Of a stretch of 64,000 bases of DNA, positions 19,301 to 64,000 are shown piece by piece. How positions within the stretch are numbered: the first letter of the stretch is position 1; each line of letters begins with the position of its first letter. The DNA is from Perna viridis. Taxonomy: Eukaryota. The DNA lies in the NCBI GenBank assembly GCA_037379345.1, contig CM074515.1, positions 4,216,001 through 4,280,000 of the forward strand. The letters run 5' to 3'. A model generated the notes under the pieces. That model was not told where the DNA came from. It did no database searches and saw only the letters and a list, made by a program, of their open reading frames with translations. A program made the position numbers and the translations under genes.

Positions 19301-22300
19301 TATTCATAAGTTAACAAATAAGAGCAGACAATGGGTGTATAACAATAAGAGCAGACAATGGGCGTATAACAATAAGAGCAAACAATGGGTGTATAACAAC
19401 AAGAGCAGACAATGGGCGTATAACAACAAGGGCAGACAATGGGCGTATAACAATTAGAGCAGACAATGGGCGTATAACAATAAGAGCAGACAATGGGTGT
19501 AAAACAATAAGAGCAGACAATGGATGTATAACAACCAGAGCAGACAATGGGTGTATAACAATAAGAGCAGACAATGGGCGTATAACAATAAGAGCAGACA
19601 ATGGGTGTATAACAACAAGAGCAGACAATGGGCGTATAACAACAAGAGCAGACAATGGGCGTATAACAATTAGAGCAGACAATGGGCGTATAACAATAAG
19701 AGCAGACAATGGGTGTATAACAATAAGAGCAGACAATGGGTGTATAACAATAAGAGCAGACAATGGGTGTATAACAATAAGAGCAGACAATGGGCGTATA
19801 ACAATAAGAGCAGACAATGGGCGTATAAGAGCAGACAATGGGTGTATAACAACAAGAGCAGACAATGAGTGTATAACAATAAGAGCATACAATGGGCGTA
19901 TAACAATAAGAGCAGACAATGGGCATATAAGAGCAGACAATGGGTGTATAACAATAAGAGCAGACAATGGGTGTATAACAACAAGAGCATACAATGGGCG
20001 TATAACAACAAGAGCAGACAATGGGTGTATAACAACAAGAGCAGACAATGGGTGTATAACAATAAGAGCAGACAATGGGTGTATAACAACAAGAGCATAC
20101 AATGGGCGTATAACAACAAGAGCAGACAATGGGTGTATAACAATAAGAGCAGACAATGGGTGTATAACAATAAGAGCAGACAATGGGTGTATAACAATAA
20201 GAGCAGACAATGGGCGTATAACAATAAGAGCAGACAATGGGTGTATAACAATAAGAGCAGACAATGGGCGTATAACAACAAGAGCAGACAATGGGTGTAT
20301 AAAGCAGACAATGGGTGCATAACAATAAGAGCAGACAATGGGTGTATAACAATAAGAGCAGACAATGGGTGTATAACAACAAGAGCAGACAATGGGTGCA
20401 TAACAATAAGAGCAGACAATGGGCGTATAACAATAAGAGCAGACAATGGGCGTATAACAATAAGAGCAGACAATGGGCGTATAAGAGCAGACAATGGGCG
20501 TATAACAATAAGAGCAGACAATGGGTGTATAACAATAAGAGCAGACAATGGGTGTATAACAACAAGAGCAGACAATGGGTGTATAAGAGCAGACAATGGG
20601 CGTATAACAATAAGAGCAGACAATGGGTGTATAAGAGCAGACAATGGGTGTATAACAATAAGAGCAGAAAATGGGCGTATAACAATAAGAGCAGACAATG
20701 GGCATATAACAATAAGAGCAGACAATGGGTGTATAACAATAAGAGCAGACAATGGGCGTATAACAACAAGAGCAGACAATGGGCGTATAACAATAAGAGC
20801 AGACAATGGGTGTATAACAATAAGAGCAGACAATGGGCGTATAACAATAAGAGCAGACAATGGGCGTATAACAATAAGAGCAAACAATGGGCGTATAACA
20901 ATAAGAGCAGACAATGGGCGTATAACAATAAGAGCAGACAATGGGTGTATAACAATAAGAGCAGACAATGGGCGTATAACAATAAGAGCAGACAATGGGT
21001 GTATAACAATAAGAGCAGACAATGGATGTATAACAACCAGAGCAGACAATGGGTGTATAACAATAAGAGCAGACAATGGGCGTATAACAATAAGAGCAGA
21101 CAATGGGTGTATAACAACAAGAGCAGACAATGGGTGTATAACAACAAGAGCAGACAATGGGCGTATAACAATTAGAGCAGACAATGGGCGTATAACAATA
21201 AGAGCAGACAATGGGTGTATAACAATAAGAGCAGACAATGGGTGTATAACAATAAGAGCAGACAATGGGTGTATAACAATAAGAGCAGACAATGGGCGTA
21301 TAACAATAAGAGCAGACAATGGGCGTATAAGAGCAGACAATGGGTGTATAACAACAAGAGCAGACAATGAAAGTATAACAATAAGAGCATACAATGGGCG
21401 TATAACAATAAGAGCAGACAATGGGCATATAAGAGCAGACAATGGGTGTATAACAATAAGAGCAGACAATGGGTGTATAACAACAAGAGCATACAATGGG
21501 CGTATAACAACAAGAGCAGACAATGGGTGTATAACAACAAGAGCAGACAATGGGTGTATAACAATAAGAGCAGACAATGGGTGTATAACAACAAGAGCAT
21601 ACAATGGGCGTATAACAACAAGAGCAGACAATGGGTGTATAACAATAAGAGCAGACAATGGGTGTATAACAATAAGAGCAGACAATGGGTGTATAACAAT
21701 AAGAGCAGACAATGGGCGTATAACAATAAGAGCAGACAATGGGTGTATAACAATAAGAGCAGACAATGGGCGTATAACAACAAGAGCAGACAATGGGTGT
21801 ATAAAGCAGACAATGGGTGCATAACAATAAGAGCAGACAATGGGTGTATAACAATAAGAGCAGACAATGGGTGTATAACAACAAGAGCAGACAATGGGTG
21901 CATAACAATAAGAGCAGACAATGGGCGTATAACAATAAGAGCAGACAATGGGCGTATAACAATAAGAGCAGACAATGGGCGTATAAGAGCAGACAATGGG
22001 CGTATAACAATAAGAGCAGACAATGGGTGTATAACAATAAGAGCAGACAATGGGTGTATAACAACAAGAGCAGACAATGGGTGTATAAGAGCAGACAATG
22101 GGCGTATAACAATAAGAGCAGACAATGGGTGTATAAGAGCAGACAATGGGTGTATAACAATAAGAGCAGAAAATGGGCGTATAACAATAAGAGCAGACAA
22201 TGGGCATATAACAATAAGAGCAGACAATGGGTGTATAACAATAAGAGCAGACAATGGGCGTATAACAACAAGAGCAGACAATGGGCGTATAACAATAAGA

Positions 22301-25300
22301 GCAGACAATGGGTGTATAACAATAAGAGCAGACAATGGGCGTATAACAATAAGAGCAGACAATGGGTGTATAACAATAAGAGCAGACAATGGGCGTATAA
22401 CAATAAGAGCAGACAATGGGCGTATAACAATAAGAGCAGACAATGGGTGTATAACAATAAGAGCAGACAATGGGCGTATAACAATAAGAGCAGACAATGG
22501 GTGTATAACAATAAGAGCAGACAATGGGCGTATAACAACAAGAGCAGACAATGGGTGTATAACAACAAGAGCAGACAATGGGCGTATAACAACAAGAGCA
22601 GACAATGGGCGTATAACAATAAGAGCAGACAATGGGCGCATAACAATAAGAGCAGACAATGGGCGTATAACAATAAGAGCAGACAATGGGCGTATAACAA
22701 TAAGAGCAGACAATGGGTGTATAACAACAAGAGCAGACAATGGGCGTATAACAATAAGAGCAGACAATGGGCATATAACAATAAGAGCAGACAATGGGTG
22801 TATAACAATAAGAGCAGACAATGGGTTTATAACAACAAGAGCAGACAATGGGTGTATAACAACAAGAGCAGACAATGGGCGTATAACAATAAGAGCAGAC
22901 AATGGGTGCATAACAATAAGAGCAGACAATGGGCGTATAACAATAAGAGCAGACAATGGGCGTATAACAATAAGAGCAGACAATGGGCGTATAACAATAA
23001 TAGTACTAAACAACAACAAATATTTTTTGTCATATGCACATACTTGGTAAGCTTCAGTAGCACTAGCTACAGCTGTCTCCACCAAACCTTCAACAAACAC
23101 TCCTTTCTTCATGTTTTCTCTCAAATGTAGACCTCTGTTAGATGGCTCTAACAAATCAAAAACATCCTCTCTGTAAATCTCCAGAAAGGAACATTTCAAC
23201 AGAAATTCTTTTCCTTTGTTCTTAACAAAAAAAAAAAAATTAATGTTAAAAACCTTACACAATACATTCTTCTCTGTTCAGACATTCTATTAAAATAATG
23301 AATTCATGCATTTCATACCGTTTTTATTCTTCTTAAAATAAAAAGCATTGCAGTGTCCAGCTTGATATAACCTCAGAGGTAAAACCCAGAACAATTGGGA
23401 CAAGTACGGACACAACATTTAAACTTCTTTGACTTTGAATTGTGATGAATTATTAGATTTTGATCAGAATGAAAGAAGACAAAGAACTTAATAATTTGCT
23501 GTTAGACATCAGTATTTTATACAGTTTGAAGAAATGGCTTATTTCTAGCCCCTTTCTACAAAGTAAATTATAAAATTTCATTTAGTATTTCAAGTAATTT
23601 CATAATGTTCAATATATACCTTTCATCCGTAAAAATTAAAGACACGCAATCTTAATGAACATGCCAACAATACCACATGCAATCTAAGTGAGCACGCCAA
23701 CAATACCTCAAACAAACTTAGTGAGTATGCCAACAATATCTCACACAGCCATAGTGAGCATGCCAACAATACCTCACACAACCTTCGTGAGCATGCCAAC
23801 AATATCTCACACAGCCTTAGTGAGCATGCCAACAATACCTCACACAGCCTTATTGAGCATGCCGACAATACCTCACACAACCTTAGTAAGCATGCTGACA
23901 ATACATCACACACACACACACATCTGCACTTGTAAACAAAATTTTTATTGCTACTATTTACCAAAGTTTGAAGGAATTCATTCAAAAAGAGGAGGTGCTA
24001 TCAAGTGACAAAAATGTCTGACGGATGGACAGACAGGTCAAAACTTTGCTGTATGGGGTATGACAAGTCAGATAAAAAAAAATATGATTTGGCACATTTG
24101 AATAAAGTTCTCCAAAGTTGAATGGGAAAAATTTGGGATATAAAATATTACCATCTCTTTTTCTTTCTCCACTAAATTAAAGAGATTTTCAAAACTTCGT
24201 GGAATAATTCCTCTTAATTCATGCTGAAAGTTTTCATCATCTTCACAAGGTCCTGAAATATAATGAAAAACTCCAATGTCAAAAGCATACTCATAAATTG
24301 GTAAGAACGATATACCAAAGTCTTTCTCACATACACAACACATTTTCCCAAAACAGGCTATCCTTATGAGATATTCATATTGCTGGACTACAAGCTACAT
24401 GTTCATATGTTTCACAACAAAGACAAATAATCCAAATAAAGAGTCAGTCCTGTCAATGCCTATGTCAAATGAGTATGTACAGTGTCAAATAATTTGTGTT
24501 CAGTTACTGGAAAATATAACCATAATTTTTGTAGTTTACTTATTTTAACTATTTTGGTGATGGACTGAAAAGCATGAAAAAAATTATTTGCAAAATTGAA
24601 TTTTTAACACTATATAACACTTATCATTTTATGAAACCGTGAAAATGATACCCACGAATCTGTTCACTGGACGGAATCCACAAAAATTAGCAGCCACAAA
24701 ATAATTAGAATGCTTACAGTGTACTAACATACTATGCTAAAGGCAAGAACTGTTGAATTTCTTTTTGACAGATAGTAATTTTAACATCAATTTAAAACCA
24801 GAATAAAAAAAAGATTGCTAACCATAAAGTTGCATATATGTTGTCATTGTTCATCCAAACTTTTAACATTATTCCCTATCAATTGGAAGCCCTGTGCTGC
24901 TATTTTTTTGGAAAATTAATTGTCTCTTTGAAATATTCCCAATTTCATCATTTAAGTCAAGCTGCAAACTTCAAACTATGCCTACAGTATATTTTTGGGA
25001 CAGAATTTTTTGATAGAAAGTTGATGTCTAACATGAGCCAAAATTGATAACAACGTACAATTTATTATTAACCTGAAAAATAAAAAATATTCCCAGAAAA
25101 AAAGAGCCAAGATTTTCGTGACAGAAGTTTTCACTATCACTGACATGCACTGAAAAGATCTGCTAAACAAGAATGTGATATCTGGCAGTTGGAATACAGA
25201 TAGAAGAATGGACAGCATGATGGAATATAAAAAATGTATACTAACAGTTCACATTTAGTTTTTTTACAGTCATTTAGCTTACCTAACATGGTATGTGTTT

Positions 25301-28300: not shown

Positions 28301-31300
28301 TCGTTTTCATTCAAAATGGATAGCCGCAATGATCAATAATATTTTAATTTAATCGCCGGTTTGACTGTTTGAGTGTCGGCTTTGGTTGATTGACGTTTAC
28401 CAAAATTTTGAATTAAAGCAATCAAAAGCAAATGGAACAAATCTGATGAAATGCATTGTAGATGAACATTTTTTCTTAAAAAATCCTAATATAAGTTGAA
28501 GTGGACGATAAGTCGAGGCTGACACTTTGCTGAAAAAATATCGAATTATAGTCCGGAAAATATAGTATCATTATTAGTATTATTTATTCTTTTTCTTACC
28601 AAATGACTTTAAGAATTATCAGAATGTACAACTTACTATGCAAATATTGTCCCATTGTAACCACGGATACAGCAATCAATAATAGGTTTTCCTATCACAT
28701 TAAACAAAGATTCCTGTAATAAATGCAAAAAATCACTGAATTTTTAACATATATTTTTATGTAGTTCTTTAGTAGGCAATTTATGTTTGAAAAAAAAAAT
28801 GAATTTGAAGAAATAAATTCCTGTCAGATAGGGAAAATGTTTCCATTAACTGAACTTTCTAAGATAATTTAGAGGTAAATATGAAAAGAAATAATCTTCA
28901 TCATTATTTTTATAAGAATCTGTATCAATTGGATGTCAGTGGTAATTAAATTGTACTCATCTATACCTGAGTAGAAGTTACATCAGCAACTTGATCAAAT
29001 GTAAACACTTTAGAATTTGAGTCAGGTTTACAGTTCATCACCAACGATGTGTCATCGAGGACCTTTAGAGCCAGAACCTGTCCAATATCTGTATCATAGG
29101 AGTCAGGCGGTCTGATCCGCACAAATACTTTAATGGCATCACCTTCTCTAAAACCAATATAGAATAAATTAAAACATGGTTTTTATTAAATTAAAATAAG
29201 AATGATTTACTTGAAATCAACAAAGTTTACCAATGTGAAGTCAATTTTCTGAAGAGCTGCTCATATCTATTTGAACCTTGTAAAAATATCCTTTTGATTA
29301 ATTCTATGCTATGAGGACTTCCATATTCTCTCATTACCAACATCACAATATAAAATTTCTTGTATTTACACCATTAAGCATACATGTAGACTTGTTTTGT
29401 TTGTTTGTTGGGGTTGAACGTCCGAGCAGCAATATTTCAGCTATATTCAGACGATGAACATGAAATTGATGATAAAATGAACATGAAATGATGATGAAAT
29501 GAAAAAGGGATGGGACACAAGGACAATGGGGGGTCGACAAATTTTGATTGCTACTGGAAATAGAGAGAGGTGGGTAGGGTCGGGCAATATAGCCTCCTGT
29601 GGCGGAGCCCTATGGTTCCTACTCCGGGAGAATACCACAGTAGGGTTCTTTAACGTGTGAGGAACGTGGCATCTTTCCCAACACGGTGCACCACTATGGT
29701 TTGCGGTCAGGTTTTCCATATTATAGCCTGACAACCCTAGCATGTAACACGTCAGGGGTACCCCATTCCACCACCTGGGGCACATCCCAGTTGCTCTGTG
29801 GGCAGAGCGCCCTAGCTCCCGGCTAGGGTTCTGAGCACTATTTAGTCGCCTTTTACGACAAGCTTAGCGCTGCTGCAGGCCTATTCTTTTAACACCCGGA
29901 CCTGCACAGGGTTACATGTATACTTATACATCTACATAACTATTAACTAGAAGCCCTTGTGGGTCTCAATCCATCACTCTGAAATAATAGAAATCTTGAA
30001 CTTGCAGTTCAAAGTCAAATTTTTTTCAGATCATAACAGAATAGGCGAATGTGTACTATCAGTATATGATCAACACAATATTTTTAAAGATGCTTAGAAC
30101 AAAATTTACTCTAGTTAAAATCACATATTATATACCAGTAGATAGCAGTGTTTTAACAAATGTTCCCAGTGTAATAAATTTCGATAATTCAAACTGTGGG
30201 AAAAAAAATCATTCACTCTTGCACTTTCTCCCACCAAAACGTAACAACTTTGATATCATTCTGCCAATCACAGAATTTTAAAATTCATATTGAAAACATT
30301 GATAAATTATGAAGGAAATCTATATAATAAATAGGATAATCAATTGGTTATTCAGTCTTTCCAATTAATTATCATATTATTAATCCACTCAGTAGTTTCA
30401 AAGATGAAGATTTTTTTAAAAGAAAACTACAATAAACAACTTAACGTATACATGACCTTACCCTGCATCTGTTGAAGTATCATGACCTACAAAATACAAA
30501 ATTTGTTATTATTTTATTTCTACAAGGAGTCTGTGTTTATAACATATTCATATGAGACATAGATGACATTAATGCTTAAAATACATTATTACATAGTAAT
30601 AAATACTTTCCTATTCAAATCAATAGAAAATAAAGCATGCAATATATCCCAGTATTTGCACACAAACTTTCATTCGTATCCAGAAAAATTCGGAGACATT
30701 CCAAATACCTTTTTAAATTTATTCCACTGTTGTCATTTGCTAAAAAAATGGCTGAACAGGATATTGACAGGTTGTTACAAAATGCGGAATTTGAAGAAAT
30801 ACCACAAGAGGAGGCAAATAATGCTGTATTAAATGTTGACAGACAAGGAGTCAAAGACTTTCAATTTTACTACAATTTATCAAACATTCATAAATTCATA
30901 TTGCACTAGTTCATATATTTATTATGCATCATATTTGAACTAGTGCAATAAAACACATACAACGTTATAAAATGCATTATATCCAACAAATTAGTATAAT
31001 GTTAACTGAAATATTTATTACTATATAATAAAAGGGTTATTGCATGAATACTGGTGAATATTGTCCCTGGCAGAGCATTACTTCAGCTTGGGACAAGTTC
31101 GTACTGACCACTACCATATGTGTGTCAATGAAGTTTCAACCTTGATTTGTCAGTTATAAATTTTGAACATGATACTTTTGGTCAACTTATATCAAGAGAG
31201 TGGATATTTGATCAAGAAATCATCATGGATTATATTTAAATTATACAGAGCCATTCCATTCACAGATGTACATATTTCTAAGAGATTTTTCTCCTAATGA

Positions 31301-34300
31301 CCTAGAACTGTCTCGTTTGACATCTGACAAACACAGAAATTTTAAAACTACGGTTCATCAATTATTAGAAATGTATGATTGTATCTTGAGCTCCCTAAAG
31401 AAAAGGGAATTCAACTGTTTTACTTTCTGTGATTTCTCAAAAGCTTTTGATAAGGTATGGCACAGAGGACTAATGTACAAAATGAAATCCTATGATATAA
31501 TAAAGTCGGTATTGATGGAAGGTAACTCACCTTGTTTAAAGACTATCTATATGCAAGAAAACAAGAATGCTACACGTAGCCATATGTCCACCCCTCCCCC
31601 CCCCCCCCCAACCCCCGGTTTCTGAGGAGTTGCGTCCACAATGTGTTCCTATTGCAAATAATGTCAAAAATGAACAAAGTCCCATAACTCCAATAAAAAT
31701 TGTCCAATCAAATTAGCAGTTAAGTATGGTAAACTACATATGTGACAAACAATCCTACAAAATTTGGTCCAATTCCGTTCAGACATTTCTGAGGAGTTGC
31801 GTCCACAAGCTTCGGACGGACGAACACCAGCATTTCTATGTCCCCGCTCCGCGTTGCGGCAGGGGACTATAAAGAGTGGTGTTAAATGAATCATCATCCC
31901 TTTGAAATGTTTCAGCGGGAGTCCCCCAAGATTCTGTTATAACGCCTTTACTATTTATTATCTATATTAACGATATTGCTGACAAACTTATTTCCCTATG
32001 CAGATTATTTGCTGATGATACCTTTTTCTTTTAATATTTCTAGTCAAAGCACAAAACACATTAAAAATGTAGTTGATCAAGATTTGACAGAATTGAATAA
32101 CTGGTCTTCTAAATGGATGATGTGTTTCAGTCATGAGAAGACGGAAATAATGTTCTCGAATAACAAAGTTCTAGATTTCAAATTTACAATGAATAATACA
32201 AACATATCTTTGTTCAAAACTCATAAGCATCTTGGTGTCGCTTTTAGTGATGATGCTAAGTGGGGCTGCCATGTTGAAGCAATTATTAACAGTGTCAAAA
32301 AACACCTTAATGTTCTTTGTATACTCAAATTGAAAATTTCCATACATAATCTTGAGAAACTGTATCTTGTTTTTATACGACCCTTATTTGAATATGCATG
32401 TGAAGTTTGGGGTAATTGTGGTACTGGCTATATTAATAAACTGGAAAGCTTACAACTTGAAGCAGCTAGAATTGTTACTGGTCTACCGATATTCACAAGT
32501 AAAGATATTTTGTATAGAGAGGTAGGATGGGAAACCTTGCATGAACAATGAAGAAATCAGCAAATTGCAAATGTTTTATAATATTCAGCATAATAATGCC
32601 CCTGAATATCTTACCAAACTGGCCCCACTTTCCATCCAAAGCACTAGTAAATATCCCTTACGGAACTGTGACAATATCATTGTTCCGTTTTGACCTCAGA
32701 GTTAATCACCCCTTCCACCATTTGCAAATGGAACTAACTTGATTTAACAATTAAACATGCAGATTCAATATCAAAATTTAAAATGGAATTAAAAAACATG
32801 AATTGTAATATTAAAATCAGACCAACCAAAACCTTTTATTTTGGTCAAAGGAAACTGAATATAATTCTGACCCAACTGCGACGTTCTGAGTCATTTCTAA
32901 ATTATGATCTTTCCAGATGCAATATTATTTCTGATCCATCTTGTTTTTGTGGATCAGCAGTGGAAAATGTCTAACACTTTCTCCCCAAGACGAAGTGCCG
33001 ACTTCATTTTGAACAAAGACGAATTTTGATGAATAAAATTAACTGGTTTCCAAAAGGACAGGAAATAGATGTAAGACTACTAATTTGTGGAAGTTTTGAA
33101 CTGTCTGGTGTTGAAAATATTAAGATATTCAAAAATGTCCTTAACTTTATTAAAGGACCTAACAGATTTCTAGTATTTTAAGTGGCAGAGTTATAGTGTT
33201 CTCAATTCCATCGCAATCTTCCTCTTCTTTTTCTTCCTTCATATACATACACTCCCTTTACTTAAACCTTTATCTTTGTTTTATATATTTTTTGCCTACA
33301 TGTACATACTATTATATTGAATTATGTATATTATGATATCATACTCTAACCACCAGTTGTCAGTTGTATCTGGGGAGGACATTGTAAGTGGGATTTCACT
33401 TGTGTCCAATCCTACTGCTTTATTTGCAATAAAATATTACTGTACCATATAATTAGGGGTACAAAAATGTAGTTCCCAAAAAAGGAGGGGTAAACCTCAT
33501 TCAGAACTTGTTTAATCCCTTTAATGGCTTTATGCAGTGATTGGGATTAAAATTAAATGGGATTAAAATGGGACTATAGCCCCCTTACCCTTCAATTCAA
33601 TTTTTGATTTCTATGGGCCATTCTAAAAAAACATGGGACAAAATTTGGAATAGCAGCTAAGGCCATCTAGACATAAATATTGAAGACCAAATGTAGCATA
33701 AACAAACTTTAATTTACAATGCAGATCAAATGTTTGTAAGAGTTAACAATTAACATGTCAATTAATTGTCACACCAAATCACTTCTTTTCTGTTTTTTGA
33801 GTTTTCATACTAATGTATTGTCTAGTGCTTTATCATAGTCCACAGATCCCCATCAGTTAGAACCTAACTTAGCTATCAAAGTAGTTTATCACAAATGATA
33901 GGAAAGAGTCTGTTTTTTGGTTTGGCTGCAATCAGATTTTGGATTTTTTTGGGGTGCTTCAGGTCCTATTTTCAATAGGGGGTTCATTATTGTGTCCAGC
34001 TACGAAGTTAGTTCCTACAACAACTGCAGTTTGATTCTGGTAATTACCATCATTAATATTTTTTTAGGCTTTGAAAAATATAATTTCTTCCGTTTAGGTC
34101 TAGCTTAAAAATGTCTTTGGTGGCATTTTCAAATGGGACGGCCAGTCCATGCTATTCTGACAGGGCTCAAGCTACTGGCGATTCTGGGCGAAATATTCGC
34201 CCCAGAGTCTCTCACTTCGCACACCAAAAGCAAAGTGAAGTCGCCTGATCATTTTCAGACATCACCCATGATCAGGACTGCACACCGTCTTTTAGCGGTA

Positions 34301-35877
34301 TTTTGACCAGAGTTATCTCTATTCAGATAACAATTCAAACAAAAATGGCACCTGTTCGAGAAAATTAATTGTAAAATTATTTTAAATCTATCGAATTATC
34401 TGTTACAAGCAAGTAGTTTAATCAGCTTTTTGTTTCAAACATTTAAGACAGGATATTCTTCACTTCAGCTTACAATAATTCATGTTTCACCATTCACATT
34501 TCATTACAAAACATGCAAATTTGTCATTTGTTCTTTGGACTTAAGCTAAATTTATCTCAATTGATAATTCGGTAGAAAACCCAAAGCATTTCTTTTGACT
34601 TCATGTTTCATAACAAAACAGTTAATTCTCCATTTTGACAGAACATTTCTAAAGCTTGAGAGGAGTCCGTACCGACCGCTACAATATGTGTCAATAAAGT
34701 TTCAGTCTTGATTTGTCAGTAATAAATTTTGAACATGATTATTGATACTCTTGGTTAACTATATCAAGAGAACTATATCAAGAGACTGGATATTTTGAAC
34801 GAGAAATCATTACGGATTAAGTAGGCTCAGGAAAAAAAAAAATGAACAAAATGAAAATTCCAACAGAATGTCACTGCCTGAAATTTTCAATTCCAGTGCT
34901 GCTGAAAAGGATAAAATCATTAGGATAATGCAGTGCAAGAAGCTTTGCTTTGCTCAATCATATATTAATTTTGTTGTAATAAATTTGGTAAGGGGTAGAG
35001 AAGTCACTTCTCCCTGTTTTTCTCAAGTAGCTTGAGCCCTGTTGTGATATTATCAAATTATTTTTATTCTTTAAAACAATGTTTGTTGTTCTTCCAAACA
35101 CACAAGCGATCGAGAATATGTAATCTAGAAAATCGACAAAGTACTGTTTCATTCCCCGTTCTTCGAATCCCCTCGAATATGTGGCGATCAAAACATCCGC
35201 CTGCAGCTATTAAAAAAATTGTTAAAAGACACGTTCATGCCTTTTTTACTGTCACAAGTAGTAGACAACATTCCACCATCAATGATGGAAACTTAATGTG
35301 CGCACATGACACGTCACATTAGTCACTCAATGCTTCATTTTAAGAGGAAATGCGACTATGGTGCACTGTTTATGAATTCAATGTTTGATGCTATTTTCCT
35401 ATTTAGTGGGCAGACATATCAGAAAATAATCATGAACACTGAATACCAAATGGGATTACCTCACCAACCTGCTTCAATGTATCGACACAGAAATGAAAAC
35501 CCACCAGCTATCCCTAACAAATGATATGTAATTGTAATGTTTTAGTTGGGTAGCTTGTGATATGGATAGAATATACCGTTAATAATCTTGAAAAGAAGTG
35601 CCTGTGTGCATGACATTGAAGCCGCGCTATGTACATGAAACAAGTGTATGAAATGTGTATCTGTCTCAGTGTGTCACTGCATGAGTAAACATAACATTCT
35701 TGACTATAAAAAAGAATATATATATAATAATATATTTGACTATATTTTTTTATAATATTCTTGAGTCATAACCATTTCAAAATAGCTTGTTTACTGGCTA
35801 AATGGTTTGCATATTGTGTCTCGTTAGGGTGCAGGCAGGAACAAGCTTAAAAAAAACCTTGATCGTTCACCTGACAT
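1353..35877 (-). CDS. KIF15: Kinesin-like protein KIF15 (kinesin-12), 28 coding exons in window, 3' part runs off the left edge
   Basis: Exons in transcript order: 35871-35877, 30462-30486, 28967-29147, 28637-28713, 25283-25320, 24152-24252, 23044-23220, 19076-19177, 18566-18673, 18265-18390, 17852-17910, 17226-17289, 15201-15321, 14826-14926, 12923-13087, 12040-12229, 11543-11652, 10653-10832, 10060-10254, 9479-9586, 9000-9105, 8051-8181, 7651-7728, 4447-4563, 2854-3021, 2059-2265, 1710-1808, 1353-1400. All GT-AG with consistent phases, 3189 nt. Translation contains [31 protein letters not shown] (P-loop), NRESSRSH (switch I), [13 protein letters not shown] (switch II), [34 protein letters not shown] and [11 protein letters not shown], then coiled coil, matching KIF15 as I recall it. 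The 7-nt first exon (ATGTCAG|GTGAAC) is the least certain. Confidence 0.95.
2648..2890. repeat. Tandem repeat of about 48 bp, 5 copies, derived from a KIF15 exon 3' end plus splice donor
   Basis: Unit aacctacagtattttcagtgagttgtttcagttgagtattgattgttg. The last copy overlaps the real exon end at 2854. Confidence 0.9.
3413..4304 (-). mobile_element. Non-autonomous Helentron/HINE-like element
   Basis: Subterminal inverted repeat gctcacctgg/ccaggtgagc, terminal hairpin gaggctc...gagcct and internal duplicated blocks. Same family as 57352-59730 in the opposite orientation. Confidence 0.65.
4978..7460. repeat. 26-bp minisatellite array (about 95 copies) in a KIF15 intron
   Basis: Unit gacaaaagcctacactaaccatt(g/a)at. 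Rare variants recur at a 1094-bp period. Confidence 0.97.
13158..14690. mobile_element. Degenerate non-autonomous TIR DNA transposon
   Basis: About 20-bp inverted repeat ttataatctgttttacagga (13171) / tccggtaaaacagattataa (14665), with aggc...gcct termini. Confidence 0.5.
15375..15840 (-). mobile_element. Penelope-like element 3' fragment
   Basis: Minus strand encodes decayed [23 protein letters not shown]...[10 protein letters not shown], followed by a stem-loop closed by ATGAGCAAC/GTTGCTCAT. Same family as 39640-41195, 48875-49276 and 60678-60873. Confidence 0.7.
19318..23001. repeat. 27-bp minisatellite array (about 138 copies) in KIF15 intron 7
   Basis: Unit aacaataagagcagacaatggg(t/c)gtat, with 21-bp deletion variants and a higher-order period of 1502 bp. 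Confidence 0.98.
23655..23922. repeat. 33-bp tandem repeat (about 8 copies) followed by a short (CA)n
   Basis: Unit gagcatgccaacaatacctcacacagccttagt. Confidence 0.9.
26960..27430 (+). mobile_element. Decayed 3' fragment of a CR1/L2-type LINE
   Basis: Remnant [11 protein letters not shown]...[18 protein letters not shown], typical of the post-RT region, with frameshifts. Confidence 0.55.
27629..28565 (+). mobile_element. Tc1/mariner-pogo-type MITE
   Basis: TIRs ccatattttccggactataagtc / gaattatagtccggaaaatatag followed by TA. Second copy at 1-879. Confidence 0.75.
29394..29912 (-). mobile_element. Intact SINE-like retroposon with structured 5' head and (CAAA)n tail
   Basis: GC-rich 519-bp insert flanked by a 13-bp TSD with one mismatch (TACATGTAGACTT 29381-29393 / TACATGTATACTT 29913-29925). 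Tail aatatagctgaaatattgctg...caacaaacaaacaaaac. Head contains GCTTGTCGTAAAAGGCGACTAA. Confidence 0.85.
31085..31232 (+). repeat. About 150-bp dispersed direct repeat, second copy at 34653-34819
   Basis: Shared tgtgtcaat(g/a)aagtttca...ttgatttgtcagt...aaattttgaacatgat...gaaatcat...ggatta. Confidence 0.75.
31345..33440 (+). mobile_element. 5'-truncated, frameshifted CR1/L2-type LINE (RT domain to 3' end) in KIF15 intron 1
   Basis: [20 protein letters not shown]..., [38 protein letters not shown] and a C-terminal C-x-C motif. Interrupted by an insertion at about 31559-31873. Confidence 0.85.
31559..31873 (-). mobile_element. Short Helentron/HINE-like insertion nested in the LINE
   Basis: aacaagaatg...gaggagttgcgtccacaa (twice)...gacggacgaac...hairpin ccgc..gcgg...gggactataaa. 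Splits the LINE RT frame. Confidence 0.55.
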
Positions 35878-36215
35878 GGTTAATTCATACGACAAGAAAC
35901 ATTCGATCAACGACGTCCCATATTTTTGTTTCGAAAATGGCGCTATTTGTTTTCGAAGTTTCGCATTTTGATATATTTTTCTAACGCTATACATTTTGCA
36001 GTTGAATTAATTAAAAACATTTTAAAATTAAATTAAACTAGCAGCTTAAAATCACATAGTGTCGATTTACATTTACCGTGAATATTTACGAAACAAAATT
36101 ACAGGGATCTCTATGCTATTTCTAGCTTATTTTACGTCACAATAACGACAGGGGCTTCCCCAGCATCAGCTGCTTATTAGACTAAGAATCACATGTAGTA
36201 CAATGGAAAGGCAAA
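35878..36215. promoter_or_regulatory. Compact bidirectional promoter between KIF15 and the DUF218 gene
   Basis: Only 338 bp between divergent ATGs; CpG-retaining. Two TTCGAA CHR-type hexamers (35930-35935, 35952-35957), YY1-type AAAATGGCG (35934-35942), TTACGTCA CRE/ATF-like site (36132-36139) and kB-consensus GGGGCTTCCC (36151-36160). Confidence 0.6.
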
Positions 36216-37481
36216 ATGCCGAATGAAGAGCATTTCAATTATGCCAGCATTATCTGGAACTACTTAAAAATAAATCACTCATTAGAAAAGGTAGGTTGTA
36301 AATTTCTTCTGCTGTAAAAATTTGGTATTTTTTCGTGTTGGAAAGGCAAAAAGGGGAGGGGTGGTTACGGCTCAGGCCTTGCAAAATTTATATTTACTCC
36401 CAAAATTGATTTTTCTTCATGACACAACTCGTGACGATAGTCGTCAATGTATGTAGAATTATAGACAATACTTAAATATTATAACTATATCAGATTTGTA
36501 CTTTACAGAATGATCTGATTTTGGTTTTGGGGAACCCAGATCTAAGAACAGCAGAATATGCCTCTAGACTGTTTCTGAATGGACTATCAACTTGGCTTAT
36601 GTTTTCCGGAAAAGATGGAAGATTGACCAGAGGTATATAACCGTTTTATTAATTGTCGATATCAGGACTTATTCAGGCATGTAAATGGTATACCCAATTT
36701 AATCAACTTTCAATTGGAGATCCGACAGATCTCCATATAGCACTTTATAATTGACCATGCTTATAGTATTTATATTGGAAAGAATATTTGTTTTTCATAT
36801 CATGATCAAAAGTGTGTTCAAAATTTTGAATTATCACAGTACTTAAATATATCATATATGGCACGAGGCATGCAGTAAGACAACTACCTCATATAACGGT
36901 TTATGTGCATATAATTCTTCTTTAAGAAATACTTGTAGTTAGATGAGTAACATGGCCCAGGACCGGCCCCGTTTTCGGTTTATCTTAAATTATATGGTGT
37001 TTTTTCACTGATAGGGAAGTGGCAAAAGCCAGAGGCACAAGTTTTTAAAGACGTCGCTATCAGCATGGGTGTCATGGAGGAGAAGATACTTCTCGAAGAA
37101 GAGGCAACAAATACAGGAGAAAATATCGTGTTCTCTTATGATGTCTTAAAAGGAAGAGGACTACTCGATTCCATTTCCACTATAACCTTAGTACAAATGC
37201 CATTCATGGAAAGGCGCACATACGCAACATTCCAGAAACAATGGCCCGGTGAAATGAATAGACTAAGTCGAGTGGTCGTAACGTCCCCAAATATTGAACT
37301 GTCGTCGTATCCAAACGCGGATGTTGGTAATATCGACGATATTATAGGGATGATGATTGGTTGTTTAGACCGAATTAAAAACTACCCAAAATTAGGGTAT
37401 CAAATTGAACAGAACATTCCTGAAGAAGTTTTAAATGTTGGGAAAAAGTTATTGCAGTCGGGCATATATGTCAAAAAATAA
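36216..37481 (+). CDS. DUF218/YdcF-family (SanA/ElyC-like superfamily) protein, 221 aa, 3 exons
   Basis: Exons 36216-36290, 36509-36632, 37015-37481 (GT-AG, phases 0 and 1) join into an uninterrupted ORF: MPNEEHFNYASIIWNYLKINHSLEKNDLILVLGNPDLRTAEYASRLFLNGLSTWLMFSGKDGRLTRGKWQKPEAQVFKDVAISMGVMEEKILLEEEATNTGENIVFSY...VQMPFMERRTYATFQKQWP...VVTSP...GYQIEQNIP. The motifs ILVLG, FSG, EA, TNTGEN and MERR-YATF are typical of bacterial YdcF proteins. AATAAA at 37477-37482 overlaps the stop codon. Confidence 0.88.
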
Positions 37482-37495
37482 AATAGTCTTTCATA

Positions 37496-37499
<4 letters not shown>

Positions 37500-37549
<50 letters not shown>
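37500..37549. repeat. (GT)n microsatellite just 3' of the DUF218 gene stop
   Basis: About 25 perfect GT units. Confidence 0.98.
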
Positions 37550-37550
<1 letters not shown>

Positions 37551-38649
37551 TTTCTAATTTTAGTTTATGATTAAAGTTACCTTCAGCTTATTCTTTCGTT
37601 TTTCCTAAAAAAGTTGTATAATTCGAATGAGTTTTAGAACTCTATACCTGTAGCGAAAAAAAAACTGTTCAAGAGAGAAAAAGAGCATAAATTGAATATG
37701 AAGTTCTTAGTCCATGGAAAAAAGGGCGTCGAAGCTGCTTTCAAAATACCAGTTAAATTAAGGATGCTCTTAAATCGTGTCTGAAGAATTGAAATTATGT
37801 GAACAAATTATTTTCGTGTTTTTTATACTCTGTTAATGAAAGTATCATTTGATACCTTCCGTTTTCGTCCATCTATCCGTCCGTCCGTTTACTCCGATTG
37901 TTTCCAGATGATGTTAAAGTAAGAAACAGACCAAAGATTTTTTTTCAAACTTTGCACAACTATTTGTAAAAATACAAAATTCTCACGAAGTAGGACAACC
38001 CAATTTATCATTTTTGAGTTTTGTTGTTTGTCGTTGTCCCGTTTGACACATTCGATTTAACGCAATCCCGATTTCATTTCCCATTTATCATGGTTATGTC
38101 GTCATCAACAGCACGTTTTAGAGCAACTTTTAAAAAGTTTTCTACTTGTGCAATTTCATGCATGATCAATATTGACTGTTAACAAACATTCTTCCCTAAA
38201 ACTAGTTCTTGATATTTTATTTATAACACATATGAATAACTATGACTGAAACGTCTAAGAAACACCTGATCAGTTAAGGATGAAATAAAACAAACGGAAA
38301 CAATTGCATGTGGGTCTTAGTATCTGAATTAATTGCATTCTTTAGATTTCCGCTAGAATCTTGGTTCCTTTAATTACTCATTCATAGGAGATGGATCCTA
38401 TTTTCGTTGAATTCTAAATTTTTCGCTTTTTATACTCCAACAAAAAAGACTTCAACCATTTTACTTTCACCTCTCTATCCTGAAATCCAGACTCCGCCCC
38501 GAAAAGACATCATTATAAAATCTTTTGGAATTTTGATGACAAATATCCTAATTACAAATCTTATCAACCATGCAATTTTGTCGATTAATGATGACAGCAA
38601 TTTTGTTGATCAGATTTAGATGCAAATATTTAAAATATATATATATATA

Positions 38650-53900: not shown

Positions 53901-56900
53901 TACTGCCAATTCACTCTTGGTATTTTTTATATTTTTTTACTTCAAAGTTTCATGGATTTTATAAGCTCATCATGGACATGACCAGTTACTCAGGTGTAGA
54001 AGGTATAGATATTAGGATTCCAAGAGAACATTGATCATAATTAAAATGTTGTGTATATTCTATCTTAAATCTTATTATTTTTAAAAAAATAGCTTTTAAA
54101 ATAAAACAAGAGTGTACATAGTGTGGTGTATTCTTATGTGAAATTTGCTGTTTTTAATTCTAGTTGGTATTGCATGTTACCTAATGCACTGGTTTTTATT
54201 CTTTAGTTGTCATTTTTTTAAAAGATATTTATCTATTTTATAGAATCCAGATCCAATGAAAACAGACGATCAGCCCTATAATGCCCAACAGTTAGAGGAG
54301 TGTGATGCCTATCCTAATGATGGTTTTGTTTTACTCAGGGTAGATGGAAATTCACATAAAATTACACATAAGGTAAAAGGCAGGTCAATTTAATAGTGCA
54401 AAATGGAGACAATAAATTTGGTAGATAGAATCTAGAAACATTATTGCATATATATCTGTAGATTGTAAATTTTGGTTATAGAATGATTTTATACCCCTGC
54501 TCATTATATTGGGGTCTATATTTGTCTGTTCATCAATTATAAATCTCTGTAACAGATTTCTCATCTTCTAGTGGAATGAATGATTAAATGATTGGTATAT
54601 TATTTATGCATGATGACTTGTACAGTGTCTCCCCTTTCCAGGTTCCTTGTTTATCTATTTCCTGTTTACCATACATCTTGGTATTTTTTTTTATGTGATG
54701 CATAATTAAAATATTTGAACAGAATTGTTTTCTTGACAGTGATGTAATATAAAAGTGTATACCCTTGGTTCTCTATAAAATTGTACCACAAGGTTCCATA
54801 TGAAAAAAGAATGATGTGTCCATATTTGTCCCTACTTGGCAGGGTTTAACCTCTGTGGTTGTGTCACGCTACACCATGCACAGCATTTTATTATTGAAAT
54901 ACGGGCTGTATAGTGATCGGAGTGTCCATCCGTCTGTCATTCTGTTTGTAACAAATATTTCTGTCATCAGCTTCGTTTTCCGAGTGACTCAGAATTTTTT
55001 CATGTGCTGTATTGGGAAATTTCCTTTGCAGATTTCATATTGCAGCACCCATTGGAGGGAATTATTACATTTTTTTTATATATGTCTTAAGCATGATGAC
55101 TTGTGCTGTATCTCCTTTTTTCAGCTTTCTAGTTCTTGTTTTCTGAGTGAATTTTTGAATTTGTGGTATTGGGAAATTTTCTGTCACAGATTTCTCAGCA
55201 CCCATTTGAAGGAATGGTTACTGGTAGATGTTTGGTGATATAGTGATTAAATGAGCTTTTAAGATATTTCTATGGACAGATTACAACTTTATATTACATA
55301 TTATTTAATTTATTTAAAATTCCTGTTTTTAGCAAGAAACCATGAAACCATTGAGGACAGTCAATAAACCGTAAACACTCCAAAGGTTACATGTACATAG
55401 CACTTTTCAATAAATCAAGAATGGATTTTGATGAAATGTCAAAGAGACAATGACCCAACTAGGGTAAAAAATATCAGAATTTCATCGGCGCTTTAAATCC
55501 CCCCATTTTTTTTTTTTGGTTCCCCACCTAGCGTATAATTAAGACTTCTGTGTATATGATTATTTTTTGGGGAGTGGGGGTATAGATGTAGTGAGCATTG
55601 CTCACAGATTTTCTAGTTTTTTTGTTTTTTTTTTTTAAATATATACACATTTTTTCATTGTCAGAAACATCAATATTTTATCAAAATCCACAGTTGAGAG
55701 ATATGCTGATTTTGAATCAATATCTGTCCCAACTCTTCAGGATTTCGACCAAAATAGTTGTATATAGCCTAGTGATATTCCGATGATCAATTATGATAAA
55801 AAATTGATTGATTTTTCAATTTCTGGCAATGATCAATATTTTTTTTCAGAATCAATTATCACAAATCCTGATCAAAACTCTGATTTTTCTGTCATTTGTT
55901 TGTATTTAAACTTCAGGTCATTCAAACCTTTGTGAGTTAGCCAAAATGACCAATTCCAAAACCCCCAAACAGTGCTTAAGTGACAGATTAGACTAGGTTC
56001 ACATAGCAGAGAAAGTTGCTTGACCACCCAGGCTATAAAAAAGTGTCATGTGGAAATATTTTGAGTTTATTAAAGTACTAGATGGACCTGCAAATATTTG
56101 TCCAAAAGTCACCTGTAAACTGTGTTAAAAGTCATACACCAACAAAGGTTTTCACATTTAGTACACATTTATTAAAAACCTAAATCTTCCTTCAGTAAGT
56201 CTGATCTAAATCAATAATTGCATCTGACAGACGACTCCAATTATTCTGATTAACTGATAATGGATTTTCATATGATTCCAACCATGAATATAGCTACACT
56301 CTCTAGAGCATTTTATTTATGGGCATTTATTATATAAACCCTGCTTTTAAAAAGGACAGTTTATATTGATACATTATGCTTGTAAATATTAATTGTAATA
56401 AGCGATGGATTAGGCTATGAATGTATATCTTATATATTAATATATTAATACATTTAATTTGTAGACAAACCTAGGAAGTCATCAGTGGTTGTTCCAATCC
56501 AGATTAGACATTGATTTACCCCCAGCGTTGTGTCTGAGACATGATGTTGATGGATTGATGATACAACCTCAGAATACAGCCAAGGAAAACCAACAGCCAT
56601 GGACGCATACTGCCACATTTAATGCATTTGGTTATGTTCAAGCATCAAAACAACAAAGAAGGTTTTCTCTGTGTGCACCTGACTGCTCCTATGCTGTTAT
56701 TTGTGATTGCGTAAGACACATGTACATATATAGACAGCCAACAGCTGTTTTATCTCCCATACGCAATAGAAAAACAGGACAGGAAGTTGGTGCTGTTGCA
56801 AAGCAACAGTTAGTGTCATTAGATGCAGTTGACAATATCATTGGCATTCAAGTTACAAACAAATACGTATTTGTTACGACAGCTGATAATTTATACTGCA

Positions 56901-56914
56901 TTACTGTTCACTGA
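41972..56914 (+). CDS. NUDCD1: NudC domain-containing protein 1, complete, 9 exons, 589 aa
   Basis: Exons 41972-42083, 45860-46011, 46313-46501, 47031-47220, 48087-48281, 51371-51581, 53194-53335, 54244-54372, 56465-56914; 1770 nt including stop, phases consistent. Translation has LRVNRDLLDSSFSGYKLSLD, a CS domain (YTWNQNDEEINVQF...STWIM), YNAQQLEECD, CLRHDVDG, TFNAFGYVQASK and AKQQLVSL, matching NUDCD1. Confidence 0.95.
43040..44970 (+). mobile_element. Decayed RTE-clade LINE in NUDCD1 intron 1, split by an AT-rich insert (about 43650-44560)
   Basis: SVPRKVLCRILL, AGFRRGRKCIDQIF, INFIDFKKAFDSVHRE and GVRQG, then later TYLESI and NSNVKSLLLYGS..W. Confidence 0.8.
48437..49577 (+). mobile_element. 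Non-autonomous piggyBac-like element
   Basis: TTAA|CCCTTTAGCTGCTA ... TAGCAGCTTAAGGG|TAAA (14-bp TIR, one mismatch). Carries a nested Penelope fragment. Confidence 0.65.
48875..49276 (+). mobile_element. Penelope-like 3' fragment nested in the piggyBac-like element
   Basis: [45 protein letters not shown], then the family 3' UTR (gcacctggtccatgct...ctcggttccc). Confidence 0.7.
49760..51246 (+). mobile_element. Helentron/HINE-like element with an internal tandem array of about 155 bp
   Basis: Starts with ctgtctgtt...ctgtccgt. Repeats of tatgtagatgtg...gactccaa...aagtgcaactccttct...gatgaaatttta. Ends ggtgggggtatt...gtgacc/ggtcac hairpin...cttagt. Interrupted by the MITE at 50278. Confidence 0.6.
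50278..50739 (-). mobile_element. About 460-bp MITE with 18-bp TIR GGTCTCACTAACCACTTC (copy 1)
   Basis: Perfect TIRs; flanks tta|...|ttaa (Kolobok- or PIF/Harbinger-type target). Reverse complement of copies 2 and 3. Confidence 0.9.
54488..55620 (+). mobile_element. Degenerate Helentron/HINE-like element(s)
   Basis: ttttataccc start, repeated gcatgatgacttgt blocks, and end gggggtata...gtgagcattgctcac hairpin...ttctagtt. Confidence 0.45.
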
Positions 56915-63212: not shown

Positions 63213-63974
63213 ATGCCACAGGACAAATCACAAGTCACAGTCTTTCCTCGGAACCAGTTTATGTTAGAGGAGCTTCCTATTGGTAGGGGAGGTTATGGCA
63301 CTGTGTTCCGTGGTCAACATACCAAACTGGGCATTGTTGCAATTAAAACTCTAATAGACACTGGGTTGTTACCTCAAAAGTAAGATATAAAGATATCTAG
63401 AGAATTTTTAATACAAGTGTTATCAGTAGTATTGCCTGTTAACATGTATTTTTGTGTAGATTTGCAACTTTTTATGTGTAAGTTACAATTTCTCTGACCA
63501 ACTGAGTATATTTTTTAATGCATTTAAAAGCCATCTGTATGATTGTCAGTAATGTAAAAAATATTTTATACATATGGTGAAGAGTATTTCTTACACAAAG
63601 GGTGCATTTGAAACTCATTTTTTCAACAACATTTCTCAATGAATAAAATCTGTTGCATGTATGTTTTTTTCAGGCACTTGCTGGCATTACAGAGAGAAGC
63701 AGAGAAATTGAGAGGTGTGTGTCAACATCCATCCATTCTAAATCTTCATGGAATTATCACTGAAAAGAATAATTATTCATTAGTTTTAGAGTACATGCCA
63801 TTAGGTAGTGCCACTGAGTTCCGTAAAGACTTTAATGTTCAGTGGCCATTAATTGTACAGATTATCAGAGACCTTGCAGATGGCATGACTTTTTTACATG
63901 AACACAAACCTACTATACTCCATCTGGACTTAAAGGGAGATAATATTTTACTAGATAAACTGTGCAGAGCAAAG
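63213..63974 (+). CDS. RIPK-like (TKL group) Ser/Thr protein kinase, first two coding exons, continues beyond the right edge
   Basis: Exons 63213-63379 and 63674-63974 (phase 2 join). Gly loop IGRGGYGTV, VAIK, alphaC QREAE, LVLEYMPLGS, GMTFLH and catalytic loop HLDLKGDNILL. An acceptor at 63198 (tttcag) implies an upstream non-coding exon. Confidence 0.85.
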
Positions 63975-64000
63975 GTAGGATACAGCAAAACTGACTGAAT

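Follow-up and report, generated by a model that had tools for sequence, protein, structure and literature searches.

The DUF218 gene and its transcripts

The 64,000-nt window of the Perna viridis genome analysed here (contig CM074515.1, positions 4,216,001 to 4,280,000) carries on its plus strand a gene for a 221-aa protein of the DUF218 family, flanked by a kinesin gene (PF00225) on the minus strand and, on its own strand, by a NUDCD1-like gene with a CS domain. A first-pass annotation had proposed three exons and two GT-AG introns for this gene, and this model proved exact to the base: the coding segments 36216-36290, 36509-36632 and 37015-37481 add up to 666 nt, corresponding to 221 codons plus stop. 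Exon 1 (36216..36290; 75 nt, 25 codons, phase 0) is common to all three transcript forms described below. It is separated by intron 1 (36291..36508; 218 nt, GT-AG, phase 0) from exon 2 (36509..36632; 124 nt), which ends in phase 1 and whose donor at 36633 was joined to 37015, 41959 or 45860. Intron 2 (36633..37014; 382 nt, GT-AG, phase 1) precedes the terminal DUF218 exon 3 (37015..37481), which holds Thr100, Met128, Met131, Arg134 and Cys183. The GT donors lie at 36291 and 36633, and the AG acceptors end at 36508 and 37014. In the genome searched (723 Mb, 46 contigs) the window belongs to contig C5.

Both proposed junctions, 36290/36509 and 36632/37015, were seen as skips of 218 and 382 nt in contigs of all five RNA-like runs, which represent five studies; the RNA-like status of these runs is a guess resting on the spliced joints, none of them being on record as RNA. 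In the DNA-like run X15 neither joint occurred, and one unbroken contig spanned 35284-37486 at a depth of 114, similar to that of the flanking single-copy contigs. Because the joints are present in RNA-like runs and the X15 contig is unbroken at the depth of its neighbours, assembly contamination and a pseudogene were excluded, and we attach next to no probability to either. No point supporting them was found; they are contradicted by splicing in five studies, by a continuous DNA contig at single-copy depth, by the intact frame and by the Mytilus orthologue being 69-70% identical over 210 columns. The DUF218 gene is a real, integrated, intact and spliced animal gene, in line with the earlier argument that its position between two animal genes speaks against contamination.

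The RNA-like contigs start at 36150 (X1), 36160 (X5, X11 and X14) and 36169 (X2), giving a 5’ leader of exon 1 at 36150..36215 (plus strand), although contigs cannot fix the true start. This leader contains a putative regulatory upstream open reading frame (uORF) of 7 codons (36203..36226, plus strand), which overlaps the DUF218 ATG out of frame. Its start context is strong, and ribosomes initiating there would bypass the DUF218 ATG. The 3’ end signals (37477..37575, plus strand) comprise an AATAAA on the stop codon (37477), a TG run and an ATTAAA at 37570. The TG dinucleotide run, about 25 repeats at ~37500-37550 and located 3’ of the AATAAA, might influence whether transcripts end in exon 3 or are spliced on to the downstream gene.

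Splicing of DUF218 exon 2 into the downstream NUDCD1-like gene

Two features of this locus were not part of the first-pass annotation, namely a second genomic copy and the splicing of exon 2 into the downstream gene. The exon-2 donor was also joined to 41959 in run X1 and to 45860 in run X5, in both cases at canonical sites and directly after an AG. The gene entered by these joints is single-copy and has a mid-chain CS domain and a basic N-terminal stretch in its exon N1. On these two features we take it to be likely NUDCD1. Its exons, all on the plus strand, were delimited in the region compared in X1, X5 and X14, where X14 had no cover over N2 to N4. N1 (41959..42083; ATG at 41972, 13 nt after an AG acceptor) was represented in a 184-nt X1 contig, and in X5 N2 (45860..46011) was spliced straight to DUF218 exon 2 with the reading frame maintained. 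The exons 46313-46501, 47031-47220, 48087-48281 and 51371-51581, with their splice sites and the CS domain (PF04969, E 6.5e-13), are pieces of one unbranched 1701-nt X5 contig, which runs from DUF218 exon 2 through five NUDCD1 exons. The predicted last coding exon (56465..56914) was assigned from its open frame, acceptor and stop and has one genomic match. The joints reported for this wide, repeat-crowded region are among those listed, with 279 more joints besides.

The two joints differ in their coding consequences. In the X1 contig exon 2 is followed by N1 and N2, and a stop codon ends the DUF218 frame after 69 codons, leaving 2 nt to the ATG of NUDCD1; the leader of this form contains ten upstream ATGs. 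In X5 the joint is in frame, and 66 DUF218 residues would replace the first 38 residues of NUDCD1. In X1 the contig depths, a rough measure, were 29.5 for the extra joint, 33.7 for the exon 2-3 joint and 37.1 for the body of NUDCD1; in X5 they were 41.8 for the NUDCD1 form versus 389 for the DUF218 form.

In human NUDCD1, according to PMC5636827, strict nuclear location and DHX15 binding are confined to the isoform containing the first exon, whose nuclear signal RVKR is located at residues 10-13. Since this human isoform alone has both properties, skipping of N1 would plausibly alter the location and the partner of the mussel protein. We propose a mechanism in which one promoter would give rise to a pre-mRNA that either ends in exon 3, yielding the DUF218 protein, or skips exon 3 and continues into NUDCD1. 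With N1 included, the DUF218 start would become a 69-codon uORF limiting NUDCD1 translation; with N1 skipped, the 66 DUF218 residues would take the place of the part bearing the nuclear signal in the human protein and defining its DHX15-binding isoform.

A promoter probably shared by DUF218 and NUDCD1

The fact that exons 1 and 2 are also spliced into the NUDCD1-like gene suggests that both genes likely share one promoter. The CpG observed/expected ratio was 1.11 at 35800-36500 compared to a window median of 0.28, and amounted to 0.26 in the 600 nt before N1 and to 0.20 in the NUDCD1 body. Judged by invertebrate gene-body methylation, this profile fits one unmethylated promoter upstream of DUF218. 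The CpG-rich region 35800..36500, within which the RNA-like contigs begin, is likely a bidirectional promoter; the kinesin gene lies head to head with the DUF218 gene at a distance of ~280 nt. A candidate first coding exon of the kinesin gene was placed at 35858..35877 on the minus strand, where an ATG and 20 nt lead to a phase-2 GT donor, and its phase fits the kinesin exon near 29150. We presume this kinesin to be KIF15-like, and the AAAATGGCG motif near 35935 to be of the YY1 type.

Alternatively, the joints between exon 2 and NUDCD1 could reflect ordinary read-through from a highly expressed upstream gene, with NUDCD1 having its own promoter at N1. The X5 joint, exon 2 to N2, follows the penultimate-to-second-exon pattern, which is the preferred one for read-through according to PMC5209911. 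Moreover, N1 with 300 nt on each side has a CpG observed/expected ratio of 0.73, and the DUF218 form was about nine times deeper than the NUDCD1 form in X5. On the other hand, the AG acceptor through which N1 is entered, 13 nt ahead of the ATG, is rich in pyrimidines, the exon-2 joint is the only 5’ path of the X5 NUDCD1 contig, and in X1 the joint contig comes near the depth of the NUDCD1 body, contig depth being a poor measure. The X1 contigs, too, gave no separate 5’ path into NUDCD1, bearing in mind that contigs do not show transcript starts. We regard simple read-through as unlikely, though it keeps appreciable weight, and a shared promoter as probably the main source of NUDCD1 transcripts.

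Several points besides the exon pattern of X5 weigh against a shared promoter or against the identity of the second gene. The extra joints were present in only two of the five RNA-like runs, and X2, X11 and X14 gave unbranched exon 2-3 contigs. The link to NUDCD1 comes from contigs of two studies in one species, and a separate NUDCD1 start could be hidden because contigs drop rare or short branches. In addition, the last exon of the NUDCD1-like gene matched only unnamed or beta-propeller clusters in the atlas, with no gene name. A weak search for a conserved fusion to NUDCD1 among longer proteins with a DUF218 N-terminus yielded 10 candidates, none of which scored. We found no literature on this arrangement of DUF218 and NUDCD1 in a search to which subscription papers were largely inaccessible.

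Further features of the window concern its surroundings. A protein kinase exon (PF07714/PF00069) is situated at 63612-63995, downstream of the NUDCD1-like gene, and a long tandem repeat at ~19300-23300 inside the kinesin gene gives rise to very long spurious open reading frames on both strands. Broken fragments at ~31200-33200, 38600-39400, 40000-41300 and 43050-43500 presumably derive from reverse-transcriptase retroelements, which they resemble; several of them fall in very deep repeat bins, and those beyond 37500 are located in the sequence that the joints between exon 2 and NUDCD1 leave out.

Fold and pocket residues of the DUF218 protein

Membership in DUF218, as suggested initially, was borne out by the Pfam profile (PF02698), which scored exon 3 alone with 47.2 bits against a cut-off of 27.6 and the full Mytilus orthologue with 66.8 bits. 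The AlphaFold model of the Mytilus orthologue, which is not the window’s own protein, has a predicted local distance difference test score of 96.2. As anticipated for a YdcF-type protein, this model matched E. coli YdcF (3CA8) with a Foldseek E of 3e-12 and a Z score of 23.4 (root-mean-square deviation 2.7 over 213 residues); the next structural matches were universal stress proteins with Z of 8.3 and below. NCBIfam gave no family for the 5 proteins submitted. The DUF218 domain begins within ~10 residues of the ATG, an in-frame stop is located 11 codons upstream, and the Mytilus orthologue has a similarly short N-terminus. The window copy has no hydrophobic N-terminal stretch, membrane anchor or signal peptide, and the prediction for the 221-aa product is a soluble protein of the cytosol.

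The periplasmic DUF218 proteins SanA, ElyC and YgjQ (UprA, UprB and UprC) hydrolyse the C55-diphosphate (C55-PP)-sugar bond via a Thr-His-Arg-Glu cluster, and His149 is needed in UprA, according to the main text of a recent preprint (10.64898/2026.10.14.759067). In the profile alignment Thr125, His149 and Arg152 of SanA correspond to Thr100, Met131 and Arg134 of the window protein. The MAFFT register was one column off, with Phe130 at the Upr His and Arg133 at the Upr Arg; neither alignment gives a His. This position is Met in 46 of 47 animal and in all 74 bacterial rows of the subfamily. By the His test the protein is thus not an Upr enzyme, as the catalytic His is absent, and the same holds for its bacterial relatives.

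Two other positions set the window protein apart. Lys128 and Asp183 are invariant in the bacterial (74/74) and fungal (11/11) rows and are replaced by Met and Cys, respectively, confirming the two deviations from the bacterial consensus noticed in the first-pass annotation. The bacterial count is to be read with the search patterns in mind, which allowed only Met, Thr or Lys at position 128 and left position 183 unconstrained. A SCO4629-type assignment by invariant Lys128 and Asp183 does not extend to this protein, while about 20 other positions are near-invariant across the subfamily. Among the 47 animal rows, Lys128 is kept in 16 and Asp183 in 10. Sponges, Owenia, unionids, one paralogue of amphioxus and the second one of Mytilus retain the two residues; the clade of the window gene, the fishes and the other amphioxus paralogue have substitutions at each of them.

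The genome contains one other copy (G000:C13:6700091-6704263), which is 48% identical over exon 3 and has both introns at the same positions and phases as the window gene. This C13 paralogue has a hydrophobic, signal-peptide-like N-terminus, keeps Lys128 and carries Tyr at position 183; its Mytilus counterparts keep Lys and Asp. Six bivalve paralogues of the C13 clade share a similar hydrophobic stretch, with a mean hydropathy of 1.9-2.7 over 11 residues, and none of the other rows exceeded 1.5 at the N-terminus. The C13 paralogue is therefore possibly a secreted form, as far as its N-terminal sequence goes.

Possible function of the DUF218 protein

That two invariant charges have been lost together from a pocket conserved in other respects points to a binder or a re-tuned enzyme. 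The window protein keeps the Thr and Arg of the family and the surrounding pocket and is devoid of the Upr His and of the Lys and Asp of the subfamily. It would thus most likely bind a diphosphate- or adenosyl-containing metabolite of the sugar-diphosphate or S-adenosylmethionine (SAM) type, with changed or little hydrolysis. Judging from these residues, we give a slight preference to a binder or a re-tuned enzyme over a hydrolase of the Upr type. The ligand class is a guess by analogy with family chemistry, SAM binding by YdcF and fusions to Methyltransf_16 and DTW domains. YdcF is described as cytoplasmic and SAM-binding in the available text of PMC3879167 and PMC12176290, where SAM binding is reported for YdcF only. 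The preprint likewise describes cytoplasmic YdcF in its main text as SAM-binding, lacking several Upr residues and having an undefined substrate; this text does not contain the words eukaryote, animal or fungi (10.64898/2026.10.14.759067). Among the 17 proteins scanned for fusions, Methyltransf_16 was present in 2 rows and DTW in 1. In the rows P0318, P0356, P0315, P0338, P0294 and P0337 a DUF218 domain of this subfamily is fused to Methyltransf_16, DTW, tRNA-editing, Ppx-GppA or NUDIX domains.

A less likely possibility is an active cytosolic sugar-diphosphate hydrolase, acting Upr-like in dolichol-diphosphate-glycan salvage or nucleoside-diphosphate-sugar turnover, with other residues substituting for His and Glu. 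Such an activity would agree with the cleavage of the C55-PP-sugar bond by UprA, UprB and UprC reported in the preprint and with the retention of Thr100, Arg134 and the near-invariant residues mentioned above. It is difficult to reconcile with Met at the position of the essential UprA His149 in nearly all animal and all bacterial rows and with Cys in place of Asp183, which is the sole invariant acid of the matching helix. The missing substrate for YdcF in the preprint also speaks against it, and a different ligand is indicated by the Methyltransf_16 and DTW fusions and by the binding of SAM to YdcF.

Two observations count against a binder or re-tuned enzyme. The helix that matches the one with the Upr Glu (UprA E182, UprB E240) aligns with low confidence, E240 of ElyC coming to lie near Met180, 3 residues before Cys183. 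Furthermore, inspection of 160 prokaryotic and metagenome loci, in 142 of which the family was recovered, revealed no conserved gene neighbourhood and no functional clue; the recurring neighbours were lineage-limited, except for an antisense shadow open reading frame and broad superfamilies.

Distribution of animal relatives

The profile search gave 4684 matches, of which the best 120 were listed, and was complemented by cluster look-ups. Among the matches listed, named orthologues occurred in the sponges Corticium and Oscarella, the annelid Owenia, many bivalves, the gastropods Lottia, Patella, Haliotis and Gigantopelta, the horseshoe crabs Limulus and Tachypleus, the scorpion Centruroides, the myriapod Chamberlinius, Branchiostoma, and the fishes Erpetoichthys, Acipenser, Hoplias, Clupea, Latimeria and Protopterus. 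The presence of a DUF218 gene in all six of these fishes overturns the initial statement that no vertebrate member was known. Most orthologues carry the automatic name 'uncharacterized protein SCO4629-like', just as auto-annotated genes had been expected in other marine invertebrates. The closest named proteins among these matches were from Mytilus, with 72% identity over exon 3 for XP_076111498.1 of M. galloprovincialis. Many bacterial proteins, among them those of Vibrio and Photobacterium, were ~50% identical. The nearest atlas cluster is 78% eukaryotic, with Chordata as the commonest group. No mammals, birds, insects or nematodes were among the best 120-150 rows listed, in searches not aimed at absence; losses in other animal lineages are likely.

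The N-termini of the relatives vary. The scallop, oyster, limpet and scorpion rows P0129-P0131, P0135, P0144 and P0126 have basic, non-hydrophobic N-terminal extensions (net charge +3 to +5) that resemble mitochondrial presequences, and the window copy has no such extension. In the Clupea harengus model P0235 an Obg/GTP1-type N-terminus is joined to DUF218, which, at least in annotation, makes it a further instance of exons shared between DUF218 and a neighbouring gene.

No paper on animal members of DUF218 or on SCO4629-like proteins was found in titles and the beginnings of abstracts, a search that largely left aside subscription papers and the supplements of surveys of horizontal gene transfer. 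The DUF218 word matches in PMC3482391 refer to DUF2185, which is another family.

Age and origin of the animal genes

The main trees and approximately unbiased (AU) tests were computed with IQ-TREE from 72 hand-picked rows. All 22 animal rows, together with the long-branch row P0261, formed one clade with 100/95 support under LG+G4, where the bootstrap had not fully settled, and the same clade was supported at 95 under a mixture model. Within it chordates (98/92) and protostomes (98/94) were recovered as subclades, the latter showing duplication. Vibrionaceae rows fell outside the animal clade. As proposed for comparison in the first-pass annotation, intron positions were examined and found to be common to the animal relatives and the C13 paralogue. 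The position of intron 2 coincides with the start of homology in 26 of 32 short rows, including Limulus; 31 of these short rows are from the animal clade, and most are gene calls on single exons. The mis-joined gene models of Acipenser and Latimeria break at the same intron sites. As read from these sequences, intron 2 is old.

Since the sponge-to-lungfish orthologues form one supported clade and share introns, the family is ancient and not the product of a recent transfer; that the window gene belongs to an ancient, patchily kept animal family is close to certain. The initial suggestion of bacterial acquisition or patchy retention in invertebrates therefore holds as to patchiness, and not as to a recent or invertebrate-only origin. 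A recent transfer from a marine bacterium into molluscs or invertebrates might be inferred from the ~50% identity to bacterial proteins, Vibrio and Photobacterium included, and from the long exon 3. It is contradicted by the sponge-to-lungfish clade with shared introns and by the position of the Vibrionaceae rows, and we consider it extremely improbable.

How the family entered the animal line is less certain. The fungal rows grouped with Saccharibacteria-type rows and not with animals (97/92 under LG+G4, 98 under the mixture model), and all named fungal hits among the matches listed (P0008-P0063) are from Xylariales, whose DUF218 genes are candidates for a separate transfer into fungi. The best tree is most simply read as one ancient transfer from bacteria, which is not proven, and we consider a single old transfer into the animal line to be rather probable.

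The competing explanation is vertical descent from an early eukaryote or opisthokont ancestor with many losses and no transfer into animals. In its favour, the AU test rejected neither animals and fungi as one clade (p 0.086) nor all putative eukaryotes as one clade (p 0.055), where ten 'putative protist' rows and the 'fungal' row P0303 had been labelled after a tree was seen. The tree test suggested for a horizontal transfer thus gave a mixed answer, with the best tree fitting one old transfer and no eukaryote grouping rejected. Vertical descent would also account for rows with intron-like read-through or eukaryote-like fusions, four or five of which adjoin the animals in one FastTree run, and for an animal subtree that roughly tracks the species tree. 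Conversely, the best trees were 40 and 61 log units ahead of the constrained trees, the fungi joined the Saccharibacteria-type rows with Xylariales as their only named source, and among the matches listed, most of them nameless rows, there was no named choanoflagellate or other protist. We regard vertical descent as possible, with clearly less weight than one old transfer. Besides the AU results and the protist-like rows next to the animals, a tree backbone support below 80 and the lack of a donor that stands out among bacteria weaken the case for transfer. Wider trees comprised 301 rows, for which 67 of 80 genome loci had given a protein by pattern, and another had its bacteria thinned to 314 rows. 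A metagenome scan for the contigs of the protist-like rows recovered none, with a best identity of 51% among the matches listed. Viral contigs gave 34 pattern matches, none of which was confirmed as DUF218.

Implications

Altogether, the window gene represents an old animal branch of YdcF-type DUF218 proteins with an altered pocket, likely sharing its promoter and first exons with NUDCD1. The whole reading, an old animal YdcF-type gene with likely one ancient bacterial acquisition and a promoter likely shared with NUDCD1, is in our view marginally favoured. It is doubtful, and put forward only tentatively, that a single bacterial YdcF-type gene was taken up before the sponges, that a paralogue split followed, and that the cytosolic copy captured NUDCD1 in the lineage of this mussel. 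If so, the split would have separated an ancestral form keeping Lys and Asp from a cytosolic form without both. The secreted bivalve forms with Lys and Asp could then act on bacterial lipid-linked wall precursors. NUDCD1, a conserved co-chaperone gene, would have no promoter of its own and would be splice-switched between a uORF-controlled full-length form and a DUF218-headed fusion.

The reaction of DUF218 proteins was assigned just recently, and in bacteria, with the YdcF branch still without a substrate in the main text of the preprint (10.64898/2026.10.14.759067). Naturally occurring pairs with and without the two invariant residues, along with cytosolic and signal-bearing paralogues, provide ready constructs for a substrate search, and the family allows one to ask what role a bacterial envelope-type fold plays in animals. 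The locus looks like a housekeeping gene driven via the first exons of an unrelated neighbour and constitutes a testable case of promoter capture.

Comparison with known systems

DUF218 genes in RefSeq were already known, and the splicing from exon 2 into NUDCD1 is new. The 'SCO4629-like' RefSeq genes of Mytilus, scallops, oysters, limpets, horseshoe crabs, amphioxus and fishes are direct orthologues of the window gene, differing in that they exist as automatic annotation only. With E. coli YdcF and the SCO4629-type subfamily the protein shares the whole-chain fold, as seen in the Mytilus model, the lack of a membrane anchor, Met in place of the Upr His, and the retained Arg, Asn99, Glu102 and Asn103. 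Its identity to E. coli YdcF is only 24-29%, while the SCO4629-type bacterial proteins are far closer at ~50%. The latter differ in having Lys128 and Asp183, which are replaced in the window protein, whose gene is an intron-containing animal one. The Upr factors UprA/SanA, UprB/ElyC and UprC/YgjQ belong to the same Pfam family, and their catalytic Thr and Arg align with those of the window protein; their catalytic His and N-terminal membrane anchor are both absent from it, and animals are not known to have an undecaprenyl pathway.

Regarding the transcripts, isoforms 1 and 2 of human NUDCD1, as described in PMC5636827, likewise have alternative N-termini on a common body, and mussel N1 has a comparable basic stretch where isoform 1 carries its RVKR. 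Human NUDCD1 uses a dedicated alternative start exon, whereas the mussel gene would use the front third of an unrelated enzyme fold instead. The mussel transcripts resemble read-through chimeras in involving same-strand neighbours, canonical sites, a penultimate-to-second-exon joint and an in-frame product. Unlike in such chimeras, the downstream mRNA appears to take its main 5’ end from the joint in two mussel runs, and an acceptor precedes the start exon of the downstream gene, an arrangement more like promoter capture with alternative last exons.

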